Shown here: one piece after another, positions 1 to 50,843 of the stretch | Layout of the letters: every line of letters begins with the position of its first letter | Numbering within the stretch: the stretch's first letter is position 1 | Source: Squalus acanthias | Taxonomy: Eukaryota | Length of the DNA stretch: 64,000 nucleotides | Direction of reading: 5' to 3' | Assembly: GCA_030390025.1 (NCBI GenBank) | Contig: CM059432.1 | Span: forward strand, 78,618,001-78,682,000 | Notes under the pieces: model-generated | Seen by the model: only the letters and a program-made list of their open reading frames with translations | Database searches by the model: none | What the model was told of the DNA's origin: nothing | Translations under genes and position numbers: made by a program

Positions 1-500
1 CGCGGAGGGAGCGGTCCCTTCGGAATGCTGAAAGGGGAGGTGAGGGAAAGATGTGTTTGGTGGTGGGATCACGCTGGAGGTGGCGGAAATGGCAGAGGAT
101 GATCCGTTGAATGTGGAGGCTGGTGGGGTGAAAGATGAGGACAAGGGGAACTCTATCGTGGTTCCAGGAGGGAGGGACAGGGGTGAGGGCAGAAGTGCAG
201 GAGATAGAATGGACACGGTCAAGAGCCGTGTCAACCACAGTAGAGGGGAATCTTCGGTTGAGGAAAAAGGAAGACATGTCAGAAGCACTGTTCTTTCATC
301 CCCTCCCCCCTTTCCCAGCCCCTACACTTGTTTAAAAATCTGTTCCATTTCCTGCTTTTTTTCAGTTCTGATGAAAGGTCATCGACCTGAAACGTAACTC
401 TGTTTCTCTCTTCACAGATGCTGCCTGACCTGCTGAGTATCTCCAGCATTTTCTGTTTTTATTTCAGATTTCCAGCATCTGCAGTATTTTCTTTTTGTAT
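1..500. mobile_element. Penelope-like element fragment with inverted structure (1-~289 minus-strand coding remnant; ~290-500 plus-strand 3' terminal repeat), cut by window start
   Basis: 1-289 is the reverse complement of sequence homologous to ~37165-37420 (region upstream of the GIY-YIG domain). 290-500 matches the terminal segment seen at 2533-2641 and, inverted, at 1765-1960 and 37054-37160. Confidence 0.85.
364..399 (+). ncRNA. Minimal type I hammerhead ribozyme motif in Penelope terminal repeat
   Basis: agtt-CTGATGA-a-aggtc-atc-gacct-GAAA-cgta-act: catalytic boxes CUGAUGA and GAAA, stem II aggtc/gacct, stem I agt/act, loopless palindromic stem III (ACGT). Confidence 0.65.
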
Positions 501-1864
501 TTCAGCATGTTGGCTAAAGTGGAATCTTCAATTACTTGTGAATCCAGTGACACAGGGCAAACTAACTGGCTGCATTGAGCACAAATCAACACTTAAACCC
601 ACGATGAGGTTAGGGAGCATAGAAAATGAATGTGGTCTTTGCTTTCAGAAGGTTTTGCAGAGATGAAGGATGTCATTTAGTATGATCTTGACCTAACCAA
701 TAGCAGCATGCAAAACAATATGCAATGTGTGTGATATAACAGATAGGATGTCGGCTCTCAGGCCAGTGACCTGTCGTAGAGCCCATACCACACGCACGCC
801 CAGAAGACGTTGTCTACTGCAATGGTTCAAGCTATTCTGTCAATAATGCTCGATCATCCTCACACAACAAATTGTGTATTTCTGATGGAACAAAGTTCTT
901 TCTACTATGGGGAATCACGAGCATCACAGACAAAAACATGTGTACTAGATGAAAAGAAGCAGAAGCGTCACATGTTAAAACTACCTAAAAGATCCTGCAT
1001 ACATTGCAATACTGGATCACAAGTTATAAGTCACTTACAGTATATCCTTGTGTATATTGACTAGTTGGTGTTAACGTAACAACAAATATGCCATCATACA
1101 GGTAATGGGCAGAGATGGGAAGATTATTACCCACAATATATATGTATGGACAGATAATGGTAATTGGCAATTTTGTGCAATTGAAGAGATGTCTTATGCA
1201 AATTTACCAAAGACAGACAATGTGATTTGTGGCAGTCACATCAACACAAGTGATACCTTCAACCAAAATGCTGTTCAGTGAGGCTGACTTTAAACTCTTG
1301 TATCAGCGTAGATATATCCCCCACTACCCTAGTGCATTTCACTTCTCTCATTATCAACTGCACTTGGACATATAAATCAACCAACCTACCTTGCTTAAGC
1401 AACAGTGGAGGTCCAATTTCTGGTGAATCTTCTGACTTGCTGGCAGAGCACTGACCTCCCTCCTTAGCTTTTTAAGTGCACTGAGCTAGCTTAGCACATT
1501 AGCACGTTGTGACTTAAAATTGCAAGCACTTATACTGAGTTGACTGGCTCAGCCTTTGTTCATGGTCCGTGCTCCAGTTTGTTTTTTAAATCTAAGAATT
1601 TTTTTGTTCCCCATTCAGAAAGAGGAATCCAATCATTTATACTATCTCGTACTTAAATTCTGTTGTAGGTGCGTTGGAGGTAGATTTGGAAAATGGACTT
1701 CTGCACCTGTGGACCTACTGAAGAGCATAGACTAGTCTAAACAGGGCATAGCAATGTACACTAATACAAAATCAAAATACTGCGGATGCTGGAAATCTGA
1801 AATAAAAACAGAAAATGTTGGAAATACTCAGCAGATCAGGCAGCATCTGTGGAGAGAGAAACAG

Positions 1865-1901
1865 AGTTAATGTTTCAGGTTGATGACCTTTCATCAGAAC
1901 T
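1865..1901 (-). ncRNA. Hammerhead ribozyme motif (degenerate copy)
   Basis: Reverse complement reads agtt-CTGATGA-aaggtcatcaacct-GAAA-catt-aact; one stem II mismatch and GT->AT in stem III. Confidence 0.5.
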
Positions 1902-2540
1902 GGAAAAAGTTAGAGATGTAACAGATTTTAAGCAAGTGCAGGGGCAGGGGTGGAAAGAACAAAAGGGAAGGTCTGTGATAGGGTGGAAGGCAGGAGTGAT
2001 TAAATGACAAAAGGTATGATTGTACAAAGCAAAAGGAGATGGTAATGTGACAAGTAAAGAAACAAAAGATGGGTCTAGAAGAGGTGAAAATGGGAATAGC
2101 AGAATCATCAACAGCTGCCATCTGAAAAAATAGGGGTAGAGGTTATGGTCTGAAGTTGTTGAACTCGATGTTGAGTCCAGAAGGCTGTAAAGAGACTAAC
2201 TGAAAGATGAGGTGCTGTTCCTCGAGCTTACGTTAAGTTTTGTTGGAACAGTGTAAGAGGCCGAGGACAGAGGTGTCAGAGTGGGAATGGAGCAGAGAAT
2301 TAAAGTGACAGGCAACCGGAAGCAACACCTGCCCTTTTACCTCCTCCCTTCCACTGTCCATGGCCTTAAACACTCCTTCCAGGTGAAACAGCAATTTACT
2401 TGTATTACTTGCAATTTAGTATACTGTATTCGCTGCTCATGATGCGATCTCATTAGGGAGACCAAACGTAGATTGGGTGACCGCTTTGCGGAACACCTCC
2501 TTTCAGTCCGTAAGCATGATCCCGAGCTTCCGGTTTTTCC

Positions 2541-2577
2541 AGTTCTGATGAAAGGTCATCGACCTGAAACGTTAACT
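2541..2577 (+). ncRNA. Minimal hammerhead ribozyme motif
   Basis: agtt-CTGATGA-a-aggtc-atc-gacct-GAAA-cgtt-aact, all stems intact. Confidence 0.7.
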
Positions 2578-5407
2578 CTGTTTCTCTCTCCACATATGCT
2601 GCCTGACCTGCTGAGTATTTCCAGCAATTTCTGTTTTTATTATAGCAATGTACACAGTTGGTTCAGCACCAGACTTACAAAACCCAAGGCAAGTTTAAAA
2701 GTGTTTTACTGGGTGGCCTCATAATAACAAGATTGTTTAGCAAGCAGTACAACACAAAAAATTTATAGATCTTGGGTGGATCATATTGCAGAACATCCCA
2801 GATGGATCATGCATGCAAATCTCTGCTTGAATAAACCAATTATTTTCCCTCTTTGGAGAAAATTGATTTATACATCTCCTTATGCAGATGTTCAAGTGCC
2901 ATTTTGGGGTGAGTTGTAGGTGTCATGTGCCACAATTTCAGTGGTTAGCCATGTAATTGCAAAATCGATTGTCAGTTTGTTTTTCCAAAGGCTGGGAATC
3001 AATTACATCCCCCCCCCGTCCATCCGGCAGGAACAGTACATAGGAAGGGTTAAAATCACCTGAGCACACTGTTCCCACCTGACGACATTTTATCTTCACA
3101 GGCTCTGAAATTGGCCGATGCTCCCACTGCAGACAGGAGAGGGCCTACTTTAAATCTTAAAGTCGTAGCTTGATGATGTCATCTGTGGTGCGGCGGAATT
3201 TTAACTTCCCCATTTGGGAGGTCCATGCAGGGCCAACCCCAACACCTCAACCACGGCTGGAATATGCGGAGTGGTCAGAAGTTTGAAAAAGTAACTTTAA
3301 TGTGAAATCCTTGTGGGCCAGGGGGAGCAGGAGTGCTCCTCCCACCCCAGAGGCCACAAGGATACCTTGGGCCTCCCCTTCCCCAGGCTCCCACTTGCAG
3401 CCAATTCCCTTGTACTGGTACTTCCTCAGTAAACTTATTTTTTCCACAAGGCTGATTGCATGGTCGGTCACTGTGGACCTGTGATTTCCTGGGCAGTTCC
3501 TTATGCAAGCGCCATTCTGCGTTAGGAATGCTCAACCATGGAATGAGCTCTCCTGTGTCTCTGGACCTCCATTAATGACTCACCCCAACTTGAGCTAGTG
3601 CTGGAGCCTAAATTCAATGCTGTTCCCTCTTTCTCTTGACCTATAGCAACAGGAAGTGAGAAAATGCTGGAGAGAGGTAGGACCATCTCAGCATTCCAGA
3701 GAAGAGGTCACTTGACAACTCCACACAGTCGTACAATTGAGATCAGAAGCTCACCATTTGGGGAACTGTTGCTGCTTTACAACTTGCATCCTATTACTTC
3801 CCAGTGCAGCATATTGGAGCATTCCTTCAACTTAGTAATACTCGGCCTTGATGAAAATTTCTGAGTAACAACTGCTTTACTTTGAAGGATGTTACTAACA
3901 GACAATTCAAAGTATTTTCCCAGGCTGCCTCTGACCAGTTATAAAACACAGGAGAAATGAGAACTACAAGGCAACAACAGAGTGACAGATTTTAGTACCT
4001 TTAATATTATGTGGTGATTCAGATAAATGCAGCTTTCCCTCAGAAAGTGTTCTGCAAAAATTTAAGTGGGGTTATAAATTTCCTGAAGTGCCTCATATTA
4101 AATTGAAGCATCTTTACCGCTGTAAGCTTTGATGTAAATGATTGATGTTTTAATTCCATTGTATAATCAGTCTAAATTTAGGAAGACCTGATGTTTCAGG
4201 AGATTGTACCTTTGCTACAGTTAAGTTTTTAAGTTAAGTTAAGAATTTAAGTTCACAGGCTGTTATGATACGGATTTCAAAGTTTAAGTTCTTGAGCCTG
4301 GGGGCAGCTACTTTTTGTGAAAGGAATGATTCCTGTACAATCTGCACATTCTGTTTTAACAGACATTTTGTTGCGTGCTGTTTTTGCTGTGGATTTATTC
4401 AACATTTATCGGACACACTTTCATAACATGTAACAGGGAAAACTCCTCAGTGCACAAAAAAGGCTGCAAAACCTTCAGAATGGATGGTAAGTATCTATAC
4501 TGAGAATATTTCACAACATGAATCAAAGGTGTTGACAGCAGAGTAATTTACACCTCATGGCACACATGTGTGAGCGATAGGTACTAGTGGGGGTGTGTGA
4601 AAACAGTTGCAGGACCTTTCTGTGTATGACCATTGTTTACTATCTATAGAAATAGAGGCCCAGAAAACCCTAAAAGAATACAAGTGTTGTATTGTCTCTT
4701 ACCCTCAATCTATTATAATGGGAGGACAAACAATTTTATTTTTCTAATTCAAACCAGATGGAGAGAGTTAGTCTGAACAGCAGGGTTTGCATCGCAGATA
4801 CAGCATGCATTCAAAATGTACTGCATGGGCAACATTGATGTATACAATCTCAGATTTTTGGTAAATCTCATTGAAAATCAAGATTTTTTTAATTAATACA
4901 TTTTGCAATATATTTTCCCCAGTATGTGCAGCCTCTCACTGAAACTCAGATAGCATAAAGTTAAATAATATCATGATAATAATTCATTTCTCCTAAAACA
5001 CATACACAGTAATTTTAAGCACCTGAAATCTAATTTTTGTAGGTGTTGGGGATGAGGCTGGGGGTGTGGGATGGAATTGGCTTGCTTTGCTTAACATCTC
5101 ACTGGAATTACCTGAAAGAGCCACAGAAGAAAATGGGGGCACTTTAATAAGAAATAAAGTCATAGAAATACTGAAACCAAAAGATAGCAGTAAAAGGCAA
5201 GAAAATTCTAAGTATCCTCAAATATTTTTTTTAACTTAATTGTGGCTTATAAGAGATAATATCCTGTTTATGCGGTTACTCTGCTTCACCGGTGATGGTG
5301 GAAGAGTGATTCTGACAAGTAGTAGTTTCAAAAACTCCATTGCAGAGCTTTAAAATGTAAGTTACAAGTTCATAACATCGAAATGGTACAACGTGCATTG
5401 AGCTAAT

Positions 5408-11153: not shown

Positions 11154-13008
11154 ATGGCACAAAATGGCAGAGAGTGGGCTCCAGGATTTTTGGACGCTGT
11201 ACTGGATGTCTTGGTGGAGGAGGTGGAAAGGAGGAGAGATATCCTGTATCTACAGGAGGACAGCAGGCCCTCCAGACACACAGTCAAAAGGCAGTGGGAG
11301 CAGATCGCCATGGAGGTCAATGCCAGGAGTCAAGCACCGAGAACCTTATTGCAATGCTGCAAGAAGTTCAATGACCTCACACGAGTAGTCAAGGTGAGTG
11401 AATGCATCTTCAAATGTCATATCCTACCAACTGCACCACGAGCCTCAGCCACTGCTCAATTCACCACACCCCCATCACTCACCTACCAACAATCTCTATC
11501 AATCAGGATGCATACCTCACATTCATAGCTTCACCTCACCCTCACACACTTAGCACTGCTGCAAGCCTCACACCCACATTTTCCAGCTTGCACACACTGC
11601 CAGCTATTCAACCATGACAGCCACATCACTCAAACAGATTGCACGACACTCACTGACACACTTCCCTCTCTCTTGCAGGACAAAGTTTTACACAACCGGA
11701 ATCAGCAGGAGCTAACCAGAGGGGGACAGCCATGACCTAAACTTCATGGAGGAGATGGTGCTGGCCATTATTGGAATGGTAATTGGTGAGCCCATGGCCA
11801 GTGGCGGGGCTGAAGCCATCGAAGATGATGGTATCCCCATATCTAATCCTCCTTCTCACAGCCCACTTCACCCACAATCTCTTCTGATTTACAAGATGCA
11901 GCTGGTGTAAGCATGCACCTCTCACTGCCCCCTCCCTTCCCTCACCACAGCCTTACCCTTGTGCCTTTTTCCTTTCAGACACCCAAGAAGTGCAACCTGG
12001 CCAGACATTGGAGGAACACCAACAAGCGAGCAATGATGAAGACCCAGCACCGTCACTTGATTCCGCACTCGCAGCCACCAGCTCAGATACTGACACTGCG
12101 TATCTTTGATGATAGATTAGAGGTGGGATCTGCACATGGTGAGACACCGGGCATGAGTGGGCTGCAGTCAGGGCAGGAGGAAAGGGTAGCACAGTTGCCA
12201 GCTCGCCAGAGGGCAAGATGGCACATGTGCTTCGCTGCAGAGGACTCAGCTGAGGACTTCGATGGGGCAGCCTACAGAAGAACGCTGTTGGGTGGGTACG
12301 CACAACGAAATGCTTGGTGCCTTGGGAAGCTTGCCGGAAAGCCTCCATTCAATGTCAAGGAGCATGGAGGAGTCCAGCGCCAGCTTGGCAGAGCTTGCAG
12401 CGCATTCTTTCCAGCATGGAAGTGGTGGCCAATTCCGTTCACACAATTGTGGACCCAACCATGAAGCAGCATCTGATGGCCATGTCACAACTTCCATTGC
12501 AGCACAATCAGCAGCCACCCAATGTCTGAGTGCTGCAGTGGAAGCTCAGAGTGCTGCCATCATGGCTGCGGGTTACAGTGTTCAAAGGGGCTTGCAGGGG
12601 GTCACAGTAGTCCAGCAATCTGTCCTCCAACAGATTACTAGGATTGCTGAAGCACCACCTCAGGGGAGTGGCAGTGGTGCCATGGAGCATGAACCTGCTG
12701 TCCTCTCTAAGGAGGACAGCATTCGCTTTCCCACCCCTCCTACTCCGCCATTGCCCTTGCTGTTGCCCATCAGCCAGCCAGCCTAGACTGCTGGCGCTCA
12801 TGCTGAGGTGGTGCAGTCTGCAGCCAGGCCTTCTACACCCAGTGCTGCTTGAGGTCATCTTCCAAGGTCATCTGCAGTCTCCTTCACTGAAAGTCAGCAG
12901 CCTTCCACCAGCCATCCTGCAGCCACTGGGGTAGCACTGTGTAGGAGCACTAGGACAGGCAAAGGCACATGAAAGACAGGCACTAAGGTAATGTACAAGG
13001 ATGATTAG
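11154..13008 (+). pseudogene. Harbinger Myb/SANT-like DNA-binding protein, 3 exons (exon 1 11154-11393; exon 2 ~11679-11830; exon 3 from ~11979), frameshifted
   Basis: Exon 1 reads ...WEQIAMEVNA..RTLLQCCKKFNDL..K followed by GTGAGT; acceptors ctctcttgcag and tttcctttcag; exon 3 split over several frames. Confidence 0.85.
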
Positions 13009-13259
13009 TTTATGTTTGTATGCAATATGGCAAGATTTCAGTTATAAATTTGGTTTGGAATGTTTATTTTGTGGTGCTTTTTATTTTTGCATTGTGGCCA
13101 AGCAGACATTGTGATGGTCAGTGCCAGAGGGAAGGCAAGGTTTGGGACTGTTGGTGAATGGGGAATTAGGGTTGCGGTTACTGGTATAGCACTCAAATTA
13201 GATCTTCACAGACAGCCCAAGCAGAAAGGGGCTAAGTCACCTTCTCCTCCTCCGTTTCC

Positions 13260-14195
13260 TCCCGTATAGCTGGTGGCAAGGGCTGCCCTCATGATGACGA
13301 GGTTGTGCAGCATGCAGCAGACCACCATGAATCTTGACACCCGCTCTGCCGAGTACTGCAGGGCTCCTCCAGAGCGGTCCAGGCAGCGGAAGCATTGTTT
13401 CAGTATGCCATTGGTCTACTCTATTACATTTCTTGTGGCAGCATGGCTTTCATTGTATGCATACTGCGCACATGTGCATGGGTTGCACACCGGAGTCATG
13501 AGCCATGTCATCAGCGGATAGTCCTTGTCCCCCAGTAGCCACCCTTTGGTTTGCTGCGGTGGCTCAAATGCAGATGGCACAGTGGACTGCCACAGAATGA
13601 TGGCATCATGACTGCTGCCAGGATACCAGGCATTCACCTGCAAGATTCGCTGTGTATGGTTGCACAACAGCTGGACATTGAGGGAGTGGAATCCCTTTCG
13701 GTTCCGTTATATGGCAGAGTTGACATGCGGCACCCTCAAAGCGATGTGCATGCAGTCAATGGCACCCTGCACCATGGGGAAGTCTCCAACCTAGCAAAGC
13801 GTAGCACTCGCTCCACCTGCTAGTATCTGGCAAGAGAGAATTAAATGTAGTTAGCTGTCTTTGAATAGAGAGCCTCAGTGACCTCCCTTATGCAGCAGTG
13901 GACAGCAAGATGCATAAAAGTTCATCACCGCGGTTGCAGTTGTGGCTGCAGCAGGTGGAAAATTTCAGTGAGGACATGCTAATTGAAGCACAAGCGTCTC
14001 TCACATTGTTCCTCGCTGAGGTTCAGGTAGGAGAATTGCTCCCTGAACACCCTGGGTGGATATGGCCTCCTGCTGAGAGAACTTCTCGCCCTCCTCCTCC
14101 TCCTGTCTTCGAGCAGCTTGTCCTGCTCTGCGTGGCCTCTGTTCATTCTCCAAGTCATGCTGTATTCCAAGGGGAAAGCTTACTACTTTACCGAT
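13260..14195 (-). pseudogene. Harbinger (HARBI1-like) DDE transposase remnant
   Basis: Fragments [47 protein letters not shown] motif; stops and frameshifts. Confidence 0.9.
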
Positions 14196-14768
14196 GTCTG
14201 GGAGCAACAGGTTTTTGCAGAAGCCTTGAAGTCAGCAAAAAGTCGTTCAGCACCTGCCACACGACTCCCTGTAGACTTTTACAACTTGAAAGAACTATGG
14301 AAAACACCAAACACTTGTGCAATCAAAGCCAGAAGAAATAAACCAGCAACTAAACTTTAAGTAGTTGATGATCCCTTTAAATAGCGCTGGTGGGGGCTCC
14401 TTCCTGCTGCTGAACACGTGTTCAACTGTGAGAGGTTGGATGAAGCGTTGAGCTCAAAAATGGCACCACTGGCATCAAATCAGCATTGCACACTGATTGA
14501 CGTCATGACCTGCCTGCTTTGCATACTTCCGGTGGACGTTAGCTGTCACCAATATGGCATCAGGCCGATTGACAGCAGAAGCGTGCGTGCGCGCATCAAG
14601 TGCTGTTTTGGTCCCCGAACGGCACCCGTTGGCCCATACAACGGGCACTAAGCCCAATTTTGCGCCCAAAATGTTTAAAGACATTTAAAGAAAGACAATT
14701 ACAAGACAAAATGAAGAGTAGAAGCTTAAAGGGAACAACTAGGGACACTAATGTTAATGTAACAATAT

Positions 14769-17700
14769 GGAACGGTAGCATAGTGGTAATGTCACTAGGC
14801 TAGTAATCCAGAGGCCTGGACTAATGATCCAGAAACGTGAATTCAAATCCCACCACGGCAGCTGGGGAATTTAAATTCAGTTAATTAAATAAATCTGGAA
14901 TAAAAAGCTAGTATCAGTAATGAAACTATCGGATTGTCGTAAAACCCCATCTGGTTCACTAATGTCCTTTAGGAAAGGAAATCTGGCCTATATGTGACTT
15001 CAGACCCACAGCAATGTGGTTGACTCTTAACTGCCCTCTGAAATGGCCTAGCAAGCCACTCAGTTGTAACAAACCGCTACGAAACACAATAATAAGAATG
15101 AAACCGGACAGACTATGGACATGGTAACGGCACACCCAGCCCAGTCGACCCTGCAAGGTCGTCCTCAGGGGACTTGTGCCAAAATTGGGAGAGCTGTCCC
15201 ACAGATTAGTCAAGCAACAGCCTGACATAGTTATACTCACAGAATCATACCTTTCAGCCAACGTCCCAAACTCCTCCATCTCCATCCCTGGGTATGTCCT
15301 GTCCCACCAGGGGTGGCGGCACAGTGGTATACAGTTGGGAAGGAGTGGGCCTGGGAGTCCTCAACATTGACTCCAGACCCCATGAAGTCTCATGGCTTCA
15401 GGTCAAGCATGGGCAAGGCAACCTCCTGCTGATTACCACCTACTGCCCTCCCTCAGCTGATGAATCAGTACTCCTCCATGTTGATCACCACCACTTGGAA
15501 GAAGCACTGAGAGTAGCAAGGGCACAGAATGTACTCTGGGTGGGGGACTTCAATGTCCATCACCAAGAGTGGCTTGGTAACACCAGAGCTGGCTGAGTCC
15601 TGAAGGACATAGCTGTCAGTCTGAGCCTGCGACAGGTAGTGAGAAAACCAACGCTAGGGAATAACCTACTTGACCTTGTCCTCACCAATCTACCTGTCGC
15701 AGATGCATCTGTCCATGACAGTATTGGCAGCAGTTACCACCGCACAGTCCTTGTGGAGACGAAGTCCCATCTTCACACTGAGGACACCCTCCATCGTGTT
15801 GCGTGGCACCGTGCTAAATGGGATAGATTCAGAACAGATCTAGCAGCTCAAGACTGGGCATCCACGAGGCGCTGTGGGGCAGCAGCAGAATTGTATTCCG
15901 CCACAATCTGTAACCTCATGGCCTGGCATATCCCTCACTCTACCATTACCACCAAACCAGGGGACCAACCCTGGTTCAATAAGGAGTGTAGAAGAGCATG
16001 CCAGGTGCACCTAAAAATGAGGTGCCAACCTGGGGAAGCTGCAACACAGGACTACATGCATGCTAAAAAGCAGAAGCAGCATGCTATAGACAGGGCTAAA
16101 CGATCCCACAATCAACAGATCAGATCAAAGCTCTGCAGTCGTGCCACATCGAGTCATGAATGGTAGTGGACCATTAAACAACTAACGGGAGGAGGAGGCT
16201 CCATGAATATCCCCATCCTCAATGATGGTGGAGCCAAGCACGTGAGTGCAAAAGACAAGGCTGAAGCGTTTGCAACCATCTTCAGCCAGAAGTGCTGAGT
16301 GGATGATCCATATCGGCCTACTCCTGGGGTCCCCACCATCACAAAAGCCAGTCTTCAGCCAATTCGATTCACTCCACGTGATATCAAGAAACGGCTGAGC
16401 GCACTGGATACAGCAAAGGCTATCGTGCTGAAGACTTGTGCTCCAGAACTAGCCGCTCCTCTAGCCAAGTTGTTCCAGTACAGCTGCAACACTGGCATCT
16501 ATCCGACAATGTGGAAAACTGCCCAGTTAGGCCCTGTCCACAAAACGCAGGACAAATCCAATGCAGCCAATTATCGACCCATCAGTCTACTCTCAATCAT
16601 CAGCAAAGTGATGGAAGGTGTCATCGACAGTGCTTTCAAGCGGCACCTGCTCACTGATGCCCAGTTTGGGTTCTGCCAAGACCACTCGGCTCCCGACCTC
16701 ATTACAGCCTTGGTCCAAACATGGACAAAGGAGCTGAATTCCAGAGGTGAGGTGAGAGTGACTGCCCTTGACATCAAGGCAGCATTTGACCGAGTGTGGC
16801 ATCAAGGAGCCCTAGTAAAACTGAAGTCAATGGGAATCGGGGGGAAAACTCTCCACTGGCTGGAGTCATAACTAGCACAAAGGAAGATGGTTGAAGGTCA
16901 ATCATCACAGCCCCAGGACATCACTGCAGGAGTTCCTCAGGGCAGTGTCCTAGGTCCAACCATCTTCAGCTGCTGCATCAATGACCTTCCCTCCAGCATA
17001 ACATCAGAAATGGGGATGTTCGCTGATGACTGCACAGTGTTCAGCGCCATTCACAACTCCTCAGGTAATGAAGCAGTCCATGCCCGCATGCAACAAGACC
17101 TGGACGATGTTCAGGCTTGGGTTGATAAGTGGCAGGTAACATTCGTTCGACAGAGTGCCAGTCAATGACTATCTCCAACAAGCGAGAGTCTAACCACTGC
17201 CCCATGACATTCAACGGCATTACCATCGCCGAATCCCCCCCCATCAACATCCTGCGGGGTCACCATTGACCAGAAACTTAACTGGACCAGCCACATAAAT
17301 ACTGTGGCTACAAGAGCATGTCAGAGGCTAGGTATTCTGCGGCAAGTATCTCACCTCCTGACTCCCCAAAGCCTTTCCACCATCTACAAGGCACAAGTAA
17401 GGAGTGTGATGAAATACTCTCCACTTGCCTGGATGAGAGCAGTTCCAACAACACTCAAGAAGCTCGACACCATCCAGGACAAAGCAGCCCACTTGATTGG
17501 CACCCCATCCAACACCTTAAACATTCACTCCCTCCACCACCGGAGTACCGTGGCTGCAGTGTACACCATATACAAGATGCACTGCAGCAACTCGCCAAGG
17601 CTACTTCGGCAGCACCTCCCAAACCCGTGACCTCTTCCACCTAGAAGGACAAGGGCAACAGGCGCACGGGAACACCACCACCTCCAAGTTCACCTCCAGG

Positions 17701-17924
17701 TCACACACCATCCTGACTTGGAAGTATATCGCCGATCCTTCATCGTCGCTGGGTCAAAATCCTGGAACTCCCTCCCTAACAGCACTGTGGAAGTACCTTC
17801 ACCATACGGACTGCAGCTGTTGAAGAAGGTGGCTCACCACCACCTTCTCAAGGGCAATTAGGGATGGGCAATAAATGCTGGCCTTGCCAGCGACACCCAC
17901 ATCCCATAAACGACTAAAAAAAAA
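14769..17924 (+). mobile_element. Apparently full-length single-ORF LINE (APE endonuclease + RT, CR1/L2-group) with tRNA-like 5' head and short poly(A) tail; ORF disrupted
   Basis: EN motifs (PDIVILTESYL, VGDFNVHH, LDLVLTN) and RT motifs (NYRPISLL, ALDIKAAFDRVWH, GVPQGSVLGP, FADD, YKAQVRS). Likely stop TAG at 17859-17861; 3' stem-loop gctggc-ctt-gccagc; A-tail 17916-17924. Confidence 0.9.
14776..14851 (+). promoter_or_regulatory. tRNA-derived internal RNA polymerase III promoter (A box and B box) at LINE 5' end
   Basis: A box TAGCATAGTGG (14776-14786); anticodon-loop-like CTAGTAA (14800-14806, Thr-AGT-like); B-box-like GAATTCAAATCCC (14839-14851, one deviation from GTTCRANNC). Confidence 0.7.
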
Positions 17925-18511
17925 TTGGTAACTTGGCCAACAGCCCATCTAGAAATGAATTATATTTATTTTAGTCTGACAGCATGAATCAGAGCCTCTA
18001 ACTTAGATGACCCGATTAACTTGAAGGCATCAGAGTGACCTTTCTATTCTTATCAAATGAATCAGAAATACCAACTTAGGGCAAAATAAAAAGAAAAAGA
18101 TTGTTTGTTTAACATGCACTACTTGTACAGGAGCATATCCATTATTTCTATTTATCTCCTATGATAATTATTTATGTATTTTTTATGATTCATTCCCTAT
18201 TTTCTCCTATTGGAAGTTACCCCACCACCTTCTCAATTCATATTCATCTCCTTTAAGCAGGATGGCTCTATCCAGGAAACTCTCCACAGCTGCTCTCAAT
18301 CATGTTTATTGATCAACCTTAGGGTGCAAGCTAAGGCAGTACAATGTCAAATCAGGCTCTGCCAGTCAATTTTCAAATGGCATTTGCTCCCTACAGGAAG
18401 CAGAATTAGGATTCAAACTCAAGTAACTTAGTCTGGAGTTCTACAATTATACCCTCATAGTAACCAAGTAATTGCTGCCATTTTATTTTGAATCAAGTGT
18501 TGCTCGATCAG

Positions 18512-34900: not shown

Positions 34901-37117
34901 CTGCCATGTGAGACCGTGTCAAAAGCCTTGCTAAAATCCATGTAGACTACATCAAACGCACTACCCTCATCGACCCTCCTTGTTACCTCCTCAAAAAACT
35001 CAATCAAGTTAGTCAGACACGACCTTTCCTTAACAAATCCATGCTGACCGTCGTTGATTAATTGGTGCCTTTCTAAATGACGATTAATTTTTTCCAATAA
35101 TTTGCTCACCACCGAGGTTAGACTGACTGGCCTATAATTACTCGGTCTAGCCCTTTCTCCCTTTTTAAACAATGGTACAGCATTAGCAGTCCTTCAGTCC
35201 TCTGGCACCATACCTGTAGCCAGCGAGGATTGGAAAATGATTGTCGGAGCCTCTGCTATTTCCTCCCTTGCTTCTCTTAACAGCCTGGGATACATTTCAT
35301 CCGGGCCTGGTGATTTATCTACTTCAAAAGATGCTAAATCCCTTAATATTTCCTCTCTCACTATGTTTATCTCATCTAATATTTCACATTCCTCCTCCTT
35401 AACTACAATGTCTGTATCGTCCCTCTCTTCTCTGAAGACAGACGCAAAGTATTCATTAAGCTGAGAGGTGATTTAGCCAAAGTGGACTGGAGACAGAAAC
35501 TTGAAGGAAAATCAGTGTCAGAGCAGTGGGAGGCATTCAAGGAGGAGATAGTGAGGGTTCAGAGCAATATGTTCCCTTAAAGAAAAAGGGTGGGACTAAC
35601 AAATCTAGAGCTCCCTGGATGTCAAGGAGCATACAGGGTAGGATAAAGAAAAAAAGGGAAGCTTATGACAGATACCGAGGACGCAATATTGCAGAAAGCC
35701 GAGAGGAGTATAGAAAGTGCAGGGGTGAAATTAAAAAGGAAATTAGGAAAGCAAAGAGAGGGCATGAAAAAATATTGGCAGGTAAAATCAAGGAAAACCC
35801 AAATATGTTTTATAAATACATTAAGAGCAAGAGGCTAACTAAAGTAGGAGTAGGGCCTATTAGGGACCATAAAGGTAACCTGTGTGTGGAAGCGGAAGAC
35901 ATGGGTATGGTTCTTAATGAGTGCTTTGCGTCTGTTTTCACAAAAGAGAGGGACGATACAGACATTGCAATCAGGGAGGAGGAGTGTGAAATATTAGATG
36001 AAATAAACATAGTGAAAGAGGAAGTATTAAGGGGTTTAGCATCTTTGAAAGTGGATAAATCCCCAGGCCCGGATGAACTGTTAAGAGAAGTAAGAGAGGA
36101 AATAGCAGAGGCTCTGACCATCATTTTCCAATCCTCTCTGGCTACAGGTGTGGTGCCAGAGGACTGGAGGACTGCTAACATGGTACCGTTGTTTAAAAAG
36201 GGAGAAAGGGATAGACCGAGTAATTGCAGGCCAGTCAGCCTAACCTCGGTGGTGGGAAAATTATTGGAAAAAATTCTGAGGGACAGGATAAATCTTCATT
36301 TGAAAGACACGGATTAATCAGGGACAGTCAGCATGGATTTGTTAAGGGAAGGTCATGTCTGACTAACTTGATTGAATTTTTTGAGGAGGTAACAAGGAGG
36401 GTCGATGAGGGTAGTGCGTTTGATGTAGTCTATATGGATTTTAGCAAGGCTTTTGATAAGGTCCCGCATGGCAGACTAGTCACGAAAGTAAAAGCCCATG
36501 GGATCCAAGGGAAAGTGGCAAGTTGGATCCAAAATTGGCTCAGAGGCAGGAAGCAAAGGGTAATGGTCGAAGGGTGTTTTTGAGACTGGAAGGCTGTTTC
36601 CAGTGGGGTTTTGCATGGCTCAGTACTGAGTCCCTTGCTTTTTGTGGTATATATCAATGGTTTGGACTTGAATGAAGGAAGTATGATTAAGAAGTTTGCA
36701 GATGATACAAAAATTGGCCGTGTGGTTGATAATGAAGAAGAAAGCTGCAGACTGCAGGAAGATATCAATGGACTGGTCAGCTGGGCAGAACAGTGGCAAA
36801 TGGAATTCAATCTGGAGACGTGTGAGGTAATGCATTTGGGGAAGGCTAACAAGGCAAGGGAATACACAATAAATGATAGGATACTGAGAAGTGCAGAAGA
36901 TCAGAGGGACCTTGGAGTGCATGTCCATAGATCCCTAAAGATAGCAGGACAGGCAGACAAGGTGGTTAAGAAGGCATATGGGATACTTGCCTTTATTAGC
37001 TGAGGCATAGAATATAAGAGCAGTGAGGTTATGCTTGAACTGTATAAAACACTAATAACAACAGAAAATCCTGGAAAAACTCAGCAGGCCAGGCAGCATC
37101 CGTGGAGAGAGAAACAG

Positions 37118-37154
37118 AGTTAACGTTTCAGGTCGAAGACCTTTCGTCAGAACT
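37118..37154 (-). ncRNA. Minimal hammerhead ribozyme motif
   Basis: Reverse complement agtt-CTGACGA-a-aggtc-ttc-gacct-GAAA-cgtt-aact; variation versus other copies only at the variable core position and loop II. Confidence 0.72.
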
Positions 37155-37180
37155 GGAAAAAAGCAGGATTCCCCTCTACT

Positions 37181-37888
37181 GTGGTTGACACGGCCCTCGA
37201 CCGTGTCCGTTCTATCTCCCGCACTTCTGCCCTCACCCCTGCCCCTCCCTCCCGGAACCACGATAGAGTTCCCCTTGTCCTCACCTTTCACCCCACCAGC
37301 CTCCACATTCAATGGATCATCCTCCGCCATTTCCGCCACCTCCAGCGTGATCCCACCACTAAACGCATCTTCTCCTCACCTCCCCTTTCAGCATTCCATA
37401 GGGACCGCTCCCTCCGCGACACCCTAGTCCACTCCTCTACCACCCCCAGCACCCCTTCCCCTCTGCCCAGCACCTTCCCATGTAAGCGCAGGAGATGCAA
37501 CACATGCCCTTATACCTCCCTTCTTCCCACTGTCCAGGGCCCCAAACACCCCTTCCAGGTGAAACAGCGATTTACTTGTACTTCCTGCAATTTAGTATAC
37601 TGTATTCGCTGCTCACGATGTGGTCTCCTCTACATTGGGGAGACCAAACGCAGATTGGGTGACCGCTTTGTAGAACACCTCCGTTCAGTCCGTAAGGGGG
37701 ACCCCGAGCTCCCGGTGGCCTGTCACTTTAATTCTCGTCTCCAGTCCCACTCTGACCTCACCGTCCTCGGCCTATTACACTGTTCCACGGAAGCTCAGCG
37801 TAAGCTCGAGGAACAGCACCTCATCTTTTGTTTAGGCACGCTACAGGCCTCTGGACTCAACATCGAGTTCAACAATTTTAGATCATAA
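37181..37888 (+). CDS. C-terminal part of Penelope-like ORF: Cys-rich linker plus GIY-YIG endonuclease (5'-truncated, no RT)
   Basis: Open 235 codons: CKRRRCNTC linker; NLVYCIRCSRCGLLYIGETKRRLGDRFVEH; terminal GLN motif. Confidence 0.85.
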   Translation: MVDTALDRVRSISRTSALTPAPPSRNHDRVPLVLTFHPTSLHIQWIILRHFRHLQRDPTTKRIFSSPPLSAFHRDRSLRDTLVHSSTTPSTPSPLPSTFPCKRRRCNTCPYTSLLPTVQGPKHPFQVKQRFTCTSCNLVYCIRCSRCGLLYIGETKRRLGDRFVEHLRSVRKGDPELPVACHFNSRLQSHSDLTVLGLLHCSTEAQRKLEEQHLIFCLGTLQASGLNIEFNNFRS

Positions 37889-41342: not shown

Positions 41343-41970
41343 TCAGCCGCGTGGCGGTGGACGAGCTACCGGGACCTGCTCACCAGGCTCCGAGTGTGCT
41401 GGCTTGAGTCGGTCAACCGACACTTTTTCGGTCCTGTCGCCCACTTGGAGGGTGAAAAATTTGTCCCCAGCCTGTAGCACCTTGTAGGGCCCGTCGTACG
41501 GGGGTTGAAGTGGTCCGCGGTGGGCGTCGTGCCGGACGAAAACGAACCGTGCCTGGTGCAGGCTTAGTGGGACGTGTGAGGTGGATTCGCCGTGTCGGGC
41601 AATGGGCACCGGGGCGAACTGTAGCACCGGTGAGGCGAAGTCATGGCGTTGCTGGTCGGCTGACCAGGGTGTCGTGGCGGTGGGCAGGAACTCGCCGGGT
41701 ACGCGCAGCGGCTGACCGTACACGAGCTCTGCTGCCGATGCGTGGAGGTCTTCTTTAACCGCAGTACGCAGGCCGAGGCGGACCCATGGGAGTCGGTCGG
41801 TCCAGGCGCCGTCCTGGAGGCTGGCTCGAAGAGATGCCTTCAAGGATCTGTGGAACCGCTCACACAGTCCGTTGGCTTGGGGGTGGTACGCTGTGGTGCG
41901 GTGAATGGTCACCCCGAGATTGCGTGCGACGGCGGTCCAGAGTTCAGAGGTAAATTGCGGACCTCTGTCC
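41343..41970 (-). pseudogene. Gypsy integrase C-terminal half, out of frame with upstream pol
   Basis: DRGPQFTS, TTAYHPQANGLCERFH, GPY/F motif PYDGPYKV. Confidence 0.9.
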
Positions 41971-44900
41971 AAACCGTGCGACCCAGGTGCTGACGAAAGC
42001 TCTGGCAATGTCGGCGGTGGTGGTAGAGGTCAGTGGAATTGCCTCGGGCCAGCGCGTAGTGCGGTCAACGATCGTCAGCAAATGCGTGTGGCCTTGCGAC
42101 GGCGGCAGGGGCCCAATGATGTCCACGTGGATGTGGTCGAATCTACGCGAAGGGACAGTAAACTCCTCGAGGGGTGCTTTCGTGTGTTGCTGCACCTTGG
42201 CCCATTGGCAGGCTAGGCAGGAGTTGGCCCAAGTATGCACATCCTTGTGAAGGCCGCGCCAGACAAAGCGGTTGGCTACCAATTTGATGGATGCGCGGGC
42301 GCCGGGGTGGGAGAGGTTGTGAAGAATCTCGAATACCCGGCAGCGCCAGGACGGTGGGACGACGGGCCGAGGTTGACATAGGGATATGTCGCACTTGACC
42401 GTGACTGCGGTCGGGCCCCAGGCGACGTTGGCCAGGCGTAACCCTGGTAGGTTGGTAGGTGCGGAGAGCAGATCAGGGTCGGTGATCTGGTCTGCTGTGA
42501 GTTGAGCGTAGTCGACTGCCAGGTGTGCGGCGTGGATGGTGGGGCGGGAGAGGCAGTCGGCTACCACATTGTCTCGGCCGGAGACGTGTTGGATGTCCGT
42601 GGTGAACTCGGACACTGCCGCGAGCTGGCGCTGCTGCCTGGCGGACCAGGGGTCGGTTGTCTTTGCCATTGCGAATGTCAGGGGTTTGTGGTCGACAAAC
42701 GCAGTGAAGGGGTGGCCCTCCAGCAAAAACCGAAAATGGCGGACCGCCAGGAACAGCGCGAGGAGCTCGCGGTCGAAGGTGCTGTACTTGACCTCCGGGG
42801 GGCGTAGTTGGCGGCTGAAGAAGGCAAGTGGTTGCCAGGTGCCGTCGACCCACTGCTCATACACGGCGCCGACCGCGTGGTCGAAGGCGTCCGTGGTGAG
42901 CGCTACCCTGGCATTGGGCCGTGGGTGCGCGAGCAGGGTGGCGTTGGCGAGCGCGGTCTTGGTGGAGTCGAAGGCGGCTGACGCGTCTGCCGTCCATTCG
43001 ACCACCATCTTGCCGCTCCTGCCCCGGAGGGCTTCATACAGGGGCCTCATGAGGGGCGCCGCTTTGGGGATGAAGCGGTTGTAGAAATTCACCATCCCGA
43101 GGAACTCCTGGAGGCCTTTGATGGTGGTGGGGCGGGGAAATTGTTGGACGGCCTGCACCTTGGTGGGCAGGGGAATGGCCCCAGCATGGGTGATGTGGTG
43201 GCCGAGGAAGTCGATCTTGTCCAGGCAGAACTGGCATTTGGCTGGGCTGAGGATGAGCCCGTGGTCGCTGAGGCGCCCGAACAGGATGCAAAGGTGTTCG
43301 AGGTGTTCCTGCTTGGAGGAACTGGCTACCAGGATGTCATCCAGGTAGACGAACAGGAACTTCAGGTCCCGAAGGTCCGAGTCCATGAGCCGTTGGAATG
43401 CCTGGGCCGCGTTTTTGAGGCCGAAGGGCATCCGCAGGAACTCGAAAAGGCCGAAGGGGGTGATTACGGCCGTCTTGGGGACGTCCGCGGGATGGACGGG
43501 GACTTGGTGGTAGCCGCGCACCAGGTCTACCTTGGAAAAGACTGAGCGGCCAGCCAGTCTAGCCGAGAAGTCCTGGATGTGCGGCACGGAGTACCGATCA
43601 GGGGTGGTGGCATCGTTGAGGCGGCGGTAATCCCCGCAGGGGCGCCAACCCCCGCCTGGTTTGGGGGCGATGTGGAGTGGGGAGGCCCAGGGACTGTTGG
43701 AGCGGCGGATGATGCCGAGCTGTTCCATGGTGGCAAACTCGGTCCGCGCGATCTCCAGTTTGGCCGGGTCCAGCCTGCGGGCGTGGGCGTACACTGGGGG
43801 GCCTGTGGTGGGGATGAAGTGTTCCACCCCGTGTTTGGCGGCCTCCGCGGAGAAGGTCGGATTGGTAAGGGCTGGGAATTCGGCCAGGAGTGTCGAGTAG
43901 TCATCCGTGGCCCGGGCGTGGCACTGTGACGCCATGTCGGCAGGTTGACGGGGGGCCAGGGCGCCCAGGATTGCGGACATGGTGTTCATGTCCACGAGGT
44001 GGTGTCGAGGGATGTCTACCAGTAGGCCGTGGGCGCACAGGAAATCTGCGCCGATGAGAGGGGAGAGCACCTTGGCAGTGATGAACTCCCATCGGTAGCG
44101 GCGACCAGCGAGGTCGAGGGTGACTGTCCGGGTGCCGTACGTCCGGATTTCCGAGCCGTTAGCAGCAGCCAGCGCCGGTCCTCGTTTGCCCTTTTCGATG
44201 TCGAGGGTGGAGGCCGGGATGATGCTGTGCTGAGCTCCAGTGTCGCACAGGAACCGGCGGCCAGTTTTGTCATCCGTGACGTACAGCAGGGAGCCCGCGT
44301 GGCCCACGGCCATCGCGGGGGCTGGTACGGGGACGGACTTGAAAGAGCAGGGAGGTGTGCACCGTTGTGCCCTGGCGCCGAACCGTGCGTGGTAGTAACA
44401 GTGGCCCGGGTTAGTGGGGCGCGAAGGCCCCGTGAGCCCGGTGGCTGGGCCTTGTGGCCGCGTGGTGGCTGGTGAGGGGCGCGCCCAGGCAGTGGCTGCC
44501 AGGTCCGGAGTGACGTCGAGGCTGGAGTGAGCGGACAGCAGCTTGTCGGCCTCATCGGCCAGGGCTTCCAGGTCCGTGAGGCCGGACGCCACGATTGCTG
44601 GGCAGATGCTTAGAGGTAGCTGGCGGATGAACAGCGTGCGGTAGAGGGATCCAGGTGGGCTCTCGTCGGTGAGAGAGAGCATGTGGGAGAGGAGGTCTGA
44701 CGGTGAGGCATCACCGAGGCCTGGAAGGTCGAGGAGGTGGCAGTTTTGCTGGTATGTCGAGGCCGTAAATTTTTTAAGGAGCGCGGCCTTAAGATGTGCA
44801 TACTTGCCCCCCTCTGGTGGGTTCTGCAGCGCTGTCCAGACCTTCGTAACTGTGGAGCTACCGAGTGATGTGACGAGGTAGTCGTACTTCGTCCCATCTG

Positions 44901-45009
44901 TGGTGATTTGTTGCAGCTGGAATCGGGACTCGGCTTGGAGAAACCAGGCTTCGGGCTGGTTTTCCCAAAACTCCGGCAGTTTCACGGAAACTGCGTTCGT
45001 GTCCGCCAT
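41944..45009 (-). CDS. Gypsy gag-pol polyprotein (Gag, protease, RT, RNase H, integrase N-half), 1021 aa, ended by frameshift
   Basis: KLPEFW..PEAWF Gag start; C-X2-H-X9-C-X3-C knuckle; FLCDTGA protease; YLDD RT; RNase H (YSTFDRELLA); HHCC and HVDIIGP integrase motifs. Confidence 0.93.
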   Translation of the reverse strand: MADTNAVSVKLPEFWENQPEAWFLQAESRFQLQQITTDGTKYDYLVTSLGSSTVTKVWTALQNPPEGGKYAHLKAALLKKFTASTYQQNCHLLDLPGLGDASPSDLLSHMLSLTDESPPGSLYRTLFIRQLPLSICPAIVASGLTDLEALADEADKLLSAHSSLDVTPDLAATAWARPSPATTRPQGPATGLTGPSRPTNPGHCYYHARFGARAQRCTPPCSFKSVPVPAPAMAVGHAGSLLYVTDDKTGRRFLCDTGAQHSIIPASTLDIEKGKRGPALAAANGSEIRTYGTRTVTLDLAGRRYRWEFITAKVLSPLIGADFLCAHGLLVDIPRHHLVDMNTMSAILGALAPRQPADMASQCHARATDDYSTLLAEFPALTNPTFSAEAAKHGVEHFIPTTGPPVYAHARRLDPAKLEIARTEFATMEQLGIIRRSNSPWASPLHIAPKPGGGWRPCGDYRRLNDATTPDRYSVPHIQDFSARLAGRSVFSKVDLVRGYHQVPVHPADVPKTAVITPFGLFEFLRMPFGLKNAAQAFQRLMDSDLRDLKFLFVYLDDILVASSSKQEHLEHLCILFGRLSDHGLILSPAKCQFCLDKIDFLGHHITHAGAIPLPTKVQAVQQFPRPTTIKGLQEFLGMVNFYNRFIPKAAPLMRPLYEALRGRSGKMVVEWTADASAAFDSTKTALANATLLAHPRPNARVALTTDAFDHAVGAVYEQWVDGTWQPLAFFSRQLRPPEVKYSTFDRELLALFLAVRHFRFLLEGHPFTAFVDHKPLTFAMAKTTDPWSARQQRQLAAVSEFTTDIQHVSGRDNVVADCLSRPTIHAAHLAVDYAQLTADQITDPDLLSAPTNLPGLRLANVAWGPTAVTVKCDISLCQPRPVVPPSWRCRVFEILHNLSHPGARASIKLVANRFVWRGLHKDVHTWANSCLACQWAKVQQHTKAPLEEFTVPSRRFDHIHVDIIGPLPPSQGHTHLLTIVDRTTRWPEAIPLTSTTTADIARAFVSTWVARFGQRSAIYL

Positions 45010-45034
45010 TGCAGTGCTCGGAATACGTTCTGAG

Positions 45035-45048
45035 CGTCGGGGTCACCA
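45035..45048 (-). other. Primer binding site complementary to tRNA-Trp 3' end
   Basis: TGGTGACCCCGACG one base inside the 5' LTR. Confidence 0.88.
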
Positions 45049-48632: not shown

Positions 48633-50843
48633 TTTTTTTAATTCATTCCTGGGATGTGGGCGTCGCTGGCAAGGCCAGCATTTATTGCCCACCCTTAATT
48701 GTCTTTGAGAAGGTGGTGGTGAGCCACCTTCTTGAACTGCTGCAGTCCGTGTGGTGAAGGTACTCCCACAATGCTGTTAGGGAGGGAGTTCGAGGATTTT
48801 GACACAGCGACGATGAAGGAACGACGATATATTTCCAAGTTAGGATGGTTTGTAACTTGGAGGGGAACTTGCAGGTAATGGTGTTCCCATGCGCCTGCTG
48901 CCCTTGTCCATCTACGTGGTAGAGGTCACAGGTTTGGGAGGTGCTGCCGAAGTTTGGCGAGTTGCTGCAGTGCATCTGCAGCCACGGTACGCCGGTGGTG
49001 GAGGGAGTGAATGCTTAAGGTGGTGGATGGGGTGCCAATCAAGTGGGCTGCTTTGTCCTGGATGGTATCGAGCTTCTTGAGTGTTGTTGGAGCTGCACTC
49101 ATCCAGGCAAGTGGAGAGTATTCCATCACACTCCTGACTTGTGCCTTGTAGATGGTGCAAATGCTTTGGGGAGTCAGGAGGTGAGACACTCGCCACAGAA
49201 TACCCAGCCTCTTACCTGCTCTTGTAGCCACATTTCTGATGACCCCCCCAGGATGTTGATGGTGGGAGATTCAGCGATGGTAATGCTGTTGAATGTCAAG
49301 GGGCAGTGGTTACTCTCACTTGTTGGAGATAGTCATTGCCTGGCACTTGTGTGGCGTGAATGTTACTTGTCACTTATCAGCCCAAGCCTGAATGTCGTCC
49401 AGGTCTTGCTGCATGCGGGCATGGGCTGCTTCATTATCTGAGGAGTTGCAAATGGAACTGAACACTGTGCAATCATCAGCAAACATCCCCACTTCTGACC
49501 GGTGAAGGGAAGGTCATTGATGAAGCAGATGAAGATGGTTGGGTCTAGGACACTGCCCTGAGGAACTCCTGCAGCGATGTCCTGGGGCTGAGATGATTGA
49601 CTTCCAACAACCACAACCATCTTCCTTTGTGCTAGGTATGACTCCAGCCAGTGGAGAGTTTCCCTTGATTCCCATTGACTTCAATTTTACTAGGGCTCCT
49701 TGATGCCACACTCAGTCAAATGCTGCCTTGATGTCAAGGGCAGTCACTCTCACCTCACCTCTGGAATTCAGCTCCTTTGTCCATGTTTGGACCAAGGCTG
49801 TAATGAGGTCTGGAGCCGAGTGGTCCTGGCAGAACCCAAACTGAGCATCGTTGAGCAGGTGAATAAGTGCCGCTTGATAGCACTGTCGATGACACCTTCC
49901 ATCACTTTGCTGATGATTGAGAATAGACTGATGGGGCGGTAATTGGCTGGGTCGGATTTGTCCTGCTTTTTGTGGACAGGACATACCTGGGCAGTTTTCC
50001 ACATTGTCGGATAGATGCCAGTGTTGTAGCTGTACTGGAACAGCTTGGCTAGAGGCGCGGCTATTTCTGGAGCATAGTCTTCAGCACGACTGCTGGGATG
50101 TTGTCGGGGCCCATAGACTTTGCTGTATGCAAGTGCTCAGCCATTTCCTGATGTAACGTGGAGTGAATCGAATTGGCTGAAGACTGGCTTCTATGTTGGT
50201 GGGGACCTCAGGAAGAGGCCGATATGAATCATCCACTCGGCACCTCTGGCTGAAGATAGTTGCAAACTCTTCAGCCTTGTCTTTTGCACTCGCGGCTGGG
50301 CTCCGTCATCATTGAGGATGGGGATATTCATGGAGCCTCCTCCTCCCGTTAGTTGTTTAATTGTCCACCACCATTCACGACTGGATGTGGCAGGACTGCA
50401 GAGCTTTGATCTGATCCGTTGATTGTGGGATCGCTTAACTCTGTCTATAGCATGCTGCTTCCATTGTTTAGCACACATGTAGTCCTGTGTTGCAGCTTCC
50501 CCAGGTTGGCACCTCATTTTTAAGTATGCCTGGTGCTGCTCCTGGCATGCTCTTCTGTACTCTTCATTGAATCTGGCTTGATGGTAATGGTAGAGTGTGG
50601 GGTATGCCGGGCTGTGAAGTTATAGATAGTGGTGGAATACAATTCTGCTGCCGCTGATGGCTCACAGTGCCTCATGGATGCCCAGTTTTGAGCTGCTAGA
50701 TCTGTTCTGAATCTATCCCATTTAGCACGGTGGTAGTGCCACACAACACAATGGAGGGTGTCCTCAGTGTGAAGATGGGACTTTGTCTCCACAAGGACTG
50801 TGCGGTGGTCACTGCTACCAATGCTGTCATGGACAGATGCACA
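48633..50843 (-). mobile_element. 5'-truncated second copy of the single-ORF LINE family at 14769
   Basis: Colinear homology with ~15702-17924; poly(A) tail seen as T-run at 48633-48639; fragmented RT ORFs. Confidence 0.92.

Follow-up and report, generated by a model that had tools for sequence, protein, structure and literature searches.

A tRNA-headed, ORF1-less Zenon LINE of sharks and rays is a candidate for transcription by RNA polymerase III

LINEs are taken to be RNA polymerase II (Pol II) transcripts, and elements with a tRNA head are taken to be non-coding. A locus in the 64,000-nucleotide stretch of Squalus acanthias DNA analysed here (the window) raises the question of whether a single element can depart from both rules: a tRNA-like head runs directly into the coding region of a LINE. 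A sequence-only reading had proposed an autonomous family that RNA polymerase III (Pol III) would transcribe, with a coding sequence selected against runs of four or more T (T4). The parts of the element, and a second copy in the window, are as follows.

14769–17924, plus strand: copy of the elasmobranch Zenon LINE, full-length but decayed; identity to the family majority 96%, length of the family about 3315 nt
14769–14856, plus strand: tRNA-like head; weak Rfam tRNA alignment over 14775–14854, better in the intact copy L267
14776–14786, plus strand: A box, TAGCATAGTGG, a sequence retained in the four subfamily majorities and (by eye) in the consensuses of five species
14841–14850, plus strand: B box, its first G mutated to A in the window copy; GTTCGAATCC in three of five species' consensuses, the ray consensus being one base short
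14857–15069, plus strand: SINE body serving as 5′ UTR, with several upstream AUGs; 97% to the local SINE majority (family positions 1–342)
15032–15078, plus strand: candidate anticodon-mimic hairpin, a speculative start-site element from the local minimum-energy fold; loop CUAGCAA at 15048–15054, complementary to an in-frame GCU at 15076–15078
15070–17861, plus strand: endonuclease–reverse transcriptase ORF that spans 973 codons in the family and is broken in the window copy; GDFN at 15543, FADD at 17019
17862–17924, plus strand: short 3′ UTR with AATAAA at 17870 and A tail at 17916–17924, common to the SINE; last 128 nt 98% to the SINE majority
48633–50841, minus strand: second Zenon copy of the same family, 5′-truncated, its sense strand without T4

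The window copy is dead. Its two longest open stretches measure 189 and 190 amino acids, and it carries 12 deletions of 6–26 nt each relative to the family. The single endonuclease–reverse transcriptase ORF that had been described here exists at the family level (973 codons) and not in this copy, where no open piece exceeds 190 amino acids; its start had been placed after about 400 bp, but the frame opens about 330 nt in. The leader is the whole front of a SINE, namely the tRNA part and about 250 nt of body. The family majority sequence, built from 110 copies, is 3315 nt long and consists of the tRNA-like head, one ORF at 329–3250 (973 codons) and a short A tail. The natural copies L141 and L142 give Pfam matches to both the endonuclease (Exo_endo_phos) and the reverse transcriptase (RVT_1). 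The family is very large in this 3.7-Gb genome, with 34,905 first-look candidates, 40 of which were scored. Small deletions are frequent at the 164 family loci (654 of at least 5 nt, 1.6 per kb); they often lie between short direct repeats and recur at the same sites, a trait either of the Zenon reverse transcriptase or of host repair.

The head belongs to the family. The 23 distinct full-length copies (24 rows) begin at an identical base, usually after a G, amid unrelated flanks; these 5′ ends are sharp and lie 7–8 nt ahead of the A box. A short A tail closes the copies, and the 24 full-length rows gave no convincing target-site duplication. When loci were sought with the head only, 28 of the 29 non-self loci continued into the ORF and one was a SINE, in a ranking that favours heads similar to that of the window. 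When they were selected by protein only, 19 of 28 copies extended into the leader and nine were truncated within the first 200 coding nt; flank comparisons, in which a few flanks share old repeats, revealed no alternative 5′ end among them. The junction also occurs on one contig of another organism. The head–ORF junction is thus a family trait and not a chance adjacency: it is common to dozens of loci and to five species, and the head forms, as had been claimed, the genuine 5′ end of the family, which is autonomous and occurs from sharks to a ray.

In PMC13343379 (2026) the family has its counterpart in the elasmobranch Zenon LINE (CR1 group); according to the main text there, Zenon elements of sharks, rays, coelacanth and hagfish have poly-A tails and no ORF1. 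Both traits are found here: the family has no ORF1, a single ORF with endonuclease and reverse transcriptase, and an A tail. The published SquAca_Zenon-1 is 3314 nt long, compared with our 3315 nt, and the first 400 nt given for it agree with our majority almost base for base (by eye). The absence of ORF1 had been noted correctly, yet it does not point to a Pol III hybrid, as it is ordinary in Zenon, an ORF1-less group. Within the first 400 nt given per consensus in the supplement, the A/B-box head and the same body open all seven elasmobranch Zenon consensuses, from five species including a stingray, and none of the three from hagfish (two) and coelacanth (one), as judged by eye; a 15-mer from the core of the SINE body occurs in the seven elasmobranch Zenon rows and in no other row. 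The terms tRNA, polymerase, Pol III, promoter and start codon do not occur in the main text of PMC13343379, and its account of Zenon does not discuss the head, the T-run deficit, the SINE derivative or the missing AUG. The family was therefore already catalogued, and its tRNA-type head apparently went unnoticed. No report of a Pol III LINE was found in the literature searched, a search that lay outside Repbase, Dfam and most subscription journals.

Beyond elasmobranch Zenon, the closest full-length proteins, from amphioxus, sponge and further contigs of 3.3–4.1 kb, are 35–42% identical, and fragments 72–90% identical occur in several sharks. In a tree that contained no named Zenon references, the family falls in a clade with the amphioxus and sponge proteins (35–48% identity). 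Eukaryotic LINE contigs (L291–L370) also turned up in many prokaryote species-representative genomes, probably through host contamination.

How good is the head as a Pol III promoter? The A box proposed at 14776–14786 is perfect in the window copy. The B box, proposed at 14839–14851, lies at 14841–14850, although the window copy has an A for the first G of the family GTTCRA. The window head scores 16.1 bits with the Rfam tRNA model and the intact head 21.7 bits, both below the cut-off of 29. ARAGORN found no tRNA in the window and none in the loci of 56 relatives, which says little, because it also misses the Zenon head. As in SINE2 elements the head is tRNA-like with A and B boxes, though under the Rfam gathering score; the other SINE2 property, being short and non-coding, holds for the deleted derivative and not for the LINE with its 973-codon ORF. 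In the consensuses of the five species (by eye) the boxes are retained though adjacent bases differ, the B box of the ray consensus being degenerate. A loose A/B-box scan of the relatives gave matches at chance level and no convincing head.

T runs are scarce in the element, but what this means is less simple. The plus strand of 14769–17924 holds no T4 and eight TTT runs, as had been read by eye, and 14 runs of four or more A, tail included, where about 13 had been counted. The interval 14658–17969 is the longest T4-free stretch in the 64-kb window. The contrast drawn with CR1 holds, a CR1 family of the same genome having 11 T4 in 2064 coding nt, and the consensus is likewise free of T4, with none in the family majority or in the four subfamily majorities. 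T4 is absent from 119 of 164 family copies and none of 158 common variants creates one, while dead copies acquire T4 at an ordinary rate (C>T 0.018 versus 0.023). The absence of T4 has P = 0.02 against base composition, but P = 0.11 against synonymous shuffles, 0.14 under a third-position model and 0.24 under a dinucleotide model; for the leader alone P = 0.32. TTT is more telling: the ORF holds five runs, where 11.2 (P = 0.005) or 15.2 (P = 0.0004) would be expected, and synonymous shuffling shows no depletion of A, C or G runs. The idea that the coding sequence was selected against Pol III terminators is thus not carried by T4 (P = 0.11 with synonymous shuffles); it is the depletion of TTT that reaches significance (P = 0.005).

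We compared the family with relatives from 160 loci in metagenomes and contaminated MAGs, of which the 129 with an ORF of at least 450 amino acids were used and 31 dropped; one dropped locus, L331 (429 amino acids), has no T4. T4 occurs in every one of the 129, at a median of 6.7 per kb, and none of them is as poor in T runs as the family. Its observed/expected ratio for TTT, 0.44, is the lowest of the 130 sequences, the next being 0.69. Relatives are nevertheless imperfect controls, being distant and mostly far richer in T, and seven of them also show a TTT deficit at P ≤ 0.007. Phenylalanine makes up 1.85% of the family ORF; across 120 homologs it averages 4.2%, and just one of these has less than the family; in the inner clade it ranges from 1.5 to 4.2%. 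The only inner-clade relative with DNA, L291 (33% identity), has 20% T, 2.2% Phe and one T4 in 953 codons; it has an AUG, with T5 and T6 runs in its 3′ UTR, its 5′ end lying outside the covered sequence. Because this closest relative is also T-poor, low T may predate the head. Such a pre-existing poverty may have allowed a Pol III head to be captured in the first place, more T runs being purged later. As a mark of Pol III, the T-run signal is suggestive, not decisive.

Other T-poor sequences were seen alongside. In the window, a Gypsy-type ORF has 17.4% T, lower than Zenon, yet five T4. A Gypsy-type LTR element lies at 41343–45042 (minus strand); its gag-pol frame is open over 1032 codons, and the integrase end is in a different frame. 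The minus strand of 11286–13916, a GC-rich repeat, runs for 2.6 kb without T4. Among distant, T-richer relatives, T4 is also deficient at L353:3001–5034 (1 versus 8.8 expected), L332:2905–4986 (4 versus 11.9) and L331:568–1854 (0 versus 4.9); no head was seen at these three loci, two of which are 5′-truncated. T4+ runs stand directly at the A tail in three of the 23 full-length copies (L141, L159 and L065), the position expected of a Pol III terminator; decayed tails are another possible source. The window further holds a Penelope-like fragment (37124–37888, plus strand; weak GIY-YIG match below the cut-off), a Harbinger-type transposase fragment (52264–52947, plus strand; DDE_Tnp_4) and a CR1 copy (35300–35460) whose 5′ end is an inverted piece of its own interior. 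Scans of viral contigs found nothing.

The ORF has been maintained. Changes at the subfamily level are 22 synonymous to 21 other, compared with 2126 to 5075 among private changes (non-CpG, p = 0.004). Purifying selection thus acted on the ORF as long as lineages were active, and this enrichment for synonymous changes identifies the headed element as the coding, active unit. Its translation start is unusual. In frame, Met first appears at codon 287, beyond the endonuclease domain, and a stop lies ahead of codon 1. Cap-dependent scanning fits badly, because none of the nine AUGs in the first 360 nt leads into the ORF; the one closest to it, in the +1 frame, has been lost from 19 of 91 copies that have other changes in common. 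In all five species (by eye) the frame is open from a GCU codon on, with A-T-K..N-E-T in four. The A-rich linker measures 18, 18, 18 and 15 nt in the other four species (by eye); it is 17 nt in the published dogfish row and 18 nt in 48 of 64 copies in the genome. Linker lengths within the genome are multiples of three in 58 of 64 cases, a weak test, given that AAT repeats slip in steps of three and that an open frame was the reason for choosing some of the copies. Because the five-species open frame begins at GCU, the start would lie near codons 3–4, at the end of the SINE body; an AUG is absent there, and the ORF would thus start without one. R2 elements provide a case of uncapped, non-AUG translation. 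Two other routes seem less likely: read-through of an in-frame AUG-GCC-UAG mini-ORF, which meets a second stop in the dogfish family and is off-frame in the whale shark consensus, and frameshifting from the +1 AUG, given its loss in those copies and the lack of any slippery site by eye.

A candidate hairpin in the leader might serve such a start. Its 7-nt loop, CU-AGC-AA, resembles an anticodon loop and is complementary to the GCU over a variable linker of 6–7 nt, and loop and GCU are invariant in the five species (by eye). Copies differ at the loop's U, with 62 T, 14 C and 8 G. The fold (z = −0.75) is no stronger than shuffles. Loop and codon can pair in 89% of cells, and the 68 distinct copies contain no compensatory change, hence no covariation for the candidate pseudoknot. 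A post hoc scan gave three loop–codon motifs versus 0.19 expected, all in the leader, one of them the head's own anticodon arm. An Rfam IRES search with the intact head returned no match up to E = 10, and the one leader folded, which carries a deletion, was no better than shuffles (z = 0.91). In the PKI domain of the dicistrovirus intergenic IRES, the available text of PMC3517527 gives a viral linker of 6–10 nt and three pairs as sufficient; the Zenon leader is similar in its possible anticodon–codon mimic, its 6–7 nt linker and the lack of an AUG. It differs in lacking the triple-pseudoknot domain, no upstream pseudoknot having been identified, and in showing no covariation. We offer the anticodon-mimic hairpin as an IRES-like start only as a hypothesis.

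The SINE partner of the LINE clarifies its history. Over family positions 1–342 the SINE majority (20 copies) matches the family at 97%, and from 3188 to the end at 98%, a shared tail that takes in the last codons of the ORF; the local SINE, about 475 nt, is the Zenon element minus about 2.85 kb. Its junctions vary between copies, SINE copies with the Zenon head are abundant, and joints from head to tail that skip about 2860–2960 nt were found on contigs of all four other organisms examined. Since head and tail are shared and the junctions are several, the local SINEs are forms of the headed LINE that have undergone internal deletion or an exchange of ends. The body is putatively Deu-domain-like, and the local SINE may resemble SacSINE1, a Deu-SINE. 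As presented in the available parts of PMC5499810 and PMC3747384, SacSINE1 and LmeSINE1 likewise join a tRNA head, a body and a LINE-type tail in sharks, with SacSINE1 copies of up to 463 bp (PMC5499810), near the size of the local SINE; unlike the headed Zenon they are non-coding, and their tails are assigned to L2-2_CM or CR1-4_DR-like elements. The same SINE front is reported there from chimaera and coelacanth (PMC5499810), so that capture of an older SINE front by Zenon would be the simpler history. Persaeus, a SIDE of lepidopteran Zenon, and the bipartite SINEs of Kojima 2018 are also short, non-autonomous products of internal LINE deletion, according to the available text of PMC6740152 and PMC5786205; Persaeus, however, has no tRNA homology or Pol III promoter, and in Kojima's scheme it is a deleted LINE that receives the head, and 'SINEs cannot encode a protein', whereas in shark Zenon the coding parent is itself headed.

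Which polymerase, then, makes the RNA? On the features of head, T runs and leader, we judge that the headed Zenon is probably transcribed by Pol III. It is possible, though we doubt it, that Pol II makes the SINE-headed Zenon, either from a promoter active within the captured body or by host read-through, the boxes persisting via head exchange with abundant SINE RNAs and the T-poverty being inherited within the clade. An AATAAA near the 3′ end, ahead of the tail, fits Pol II polyadenylation; the absence of T4 is not significant once codons are controlled, low T and low Phe (1.5–4.2%; L291) extend to the inner clade, and LINEs are treated as Pol II transcribed in the available text of Kojima 2018 (PMC5786205). 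Against Pol II speak the sharp 5′ ends 7–8 nt before the A box, the retention of the boxes in five species while adjacent bases differ, a TTT depletion that is the strongest of 130 sequences and the lack of any AUG usable by scanning.

The ORF might also be a passenger, in a giant non-autonomous SINE mobilised in trans by a Zenon whose own 5′ end is normal. None of the copies recovered is open throughout (819 and 815 amino acids for the longest natural frames) and the ORF lacks an AUG, as such a passenger would allow, but the synonymous enrichment at the subfamily level, the frame open past GCU in five of five species (by eye) and the lack of any other 5′ end among protein-selected copies make this very improbable. 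The abundance of SINEs with the same head could suggest that the LINE came to lie beside one by chance, or inserted into one site-specifically; we reject both as having a negligible chance of being right, since the junction is shared by dozens of loci, five species and one contig of another organism, 5′-truncated copies are headless and no SINE remainder follows full-length copies.

Under Pol III transcription, the course of events would be as follows. An ORF1-less Zenon would have taken up the whole front of a tRNA-derived SINE before the shark–ray split, perhaps by template switching. TFIIIC bound to the internal A and B boxes would direct Pol III through the whole 3.3 kb, a distance it could span because the sense strand lacks T4. 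The uncapped RNA would be translated from a non-AUG start near codons 3–4, at the end of the SINE body. Target-primed reverse transcription is established for LINEs, and by this route the Zenon protein would copy its own RNA from the A tail. Internal deletions that keep head and tail give rise to the SINEs, with their several different junctions. The most far-reaching version, a Pol III-transcribed autonomous coding retrotransposon whose SINE body acts as a cap- and AUG-independent ribosome entry site through a dicistrovirus-like anticodon/codon mimic, we consider unlikely.

A family that joins a coding LINE to a tRNA head from sharks to a ray challenges both of the rules with which we began, and its RNA would be a natural 3.3-kb Pol III mRNA. 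Two questions become testable with small reporters, namely the function of the SINE body and uncapped, AUG-less translation. Even if the RNA is made by Pol II, SINE and LINE ends exchange in both directions and SINEs arise by deletion of a headed LINE. If the ribosome-entry version were true, the conserved SINE body, long unexplained, would gain a function, and the shark SINEs would be deletion products of a coding parent.
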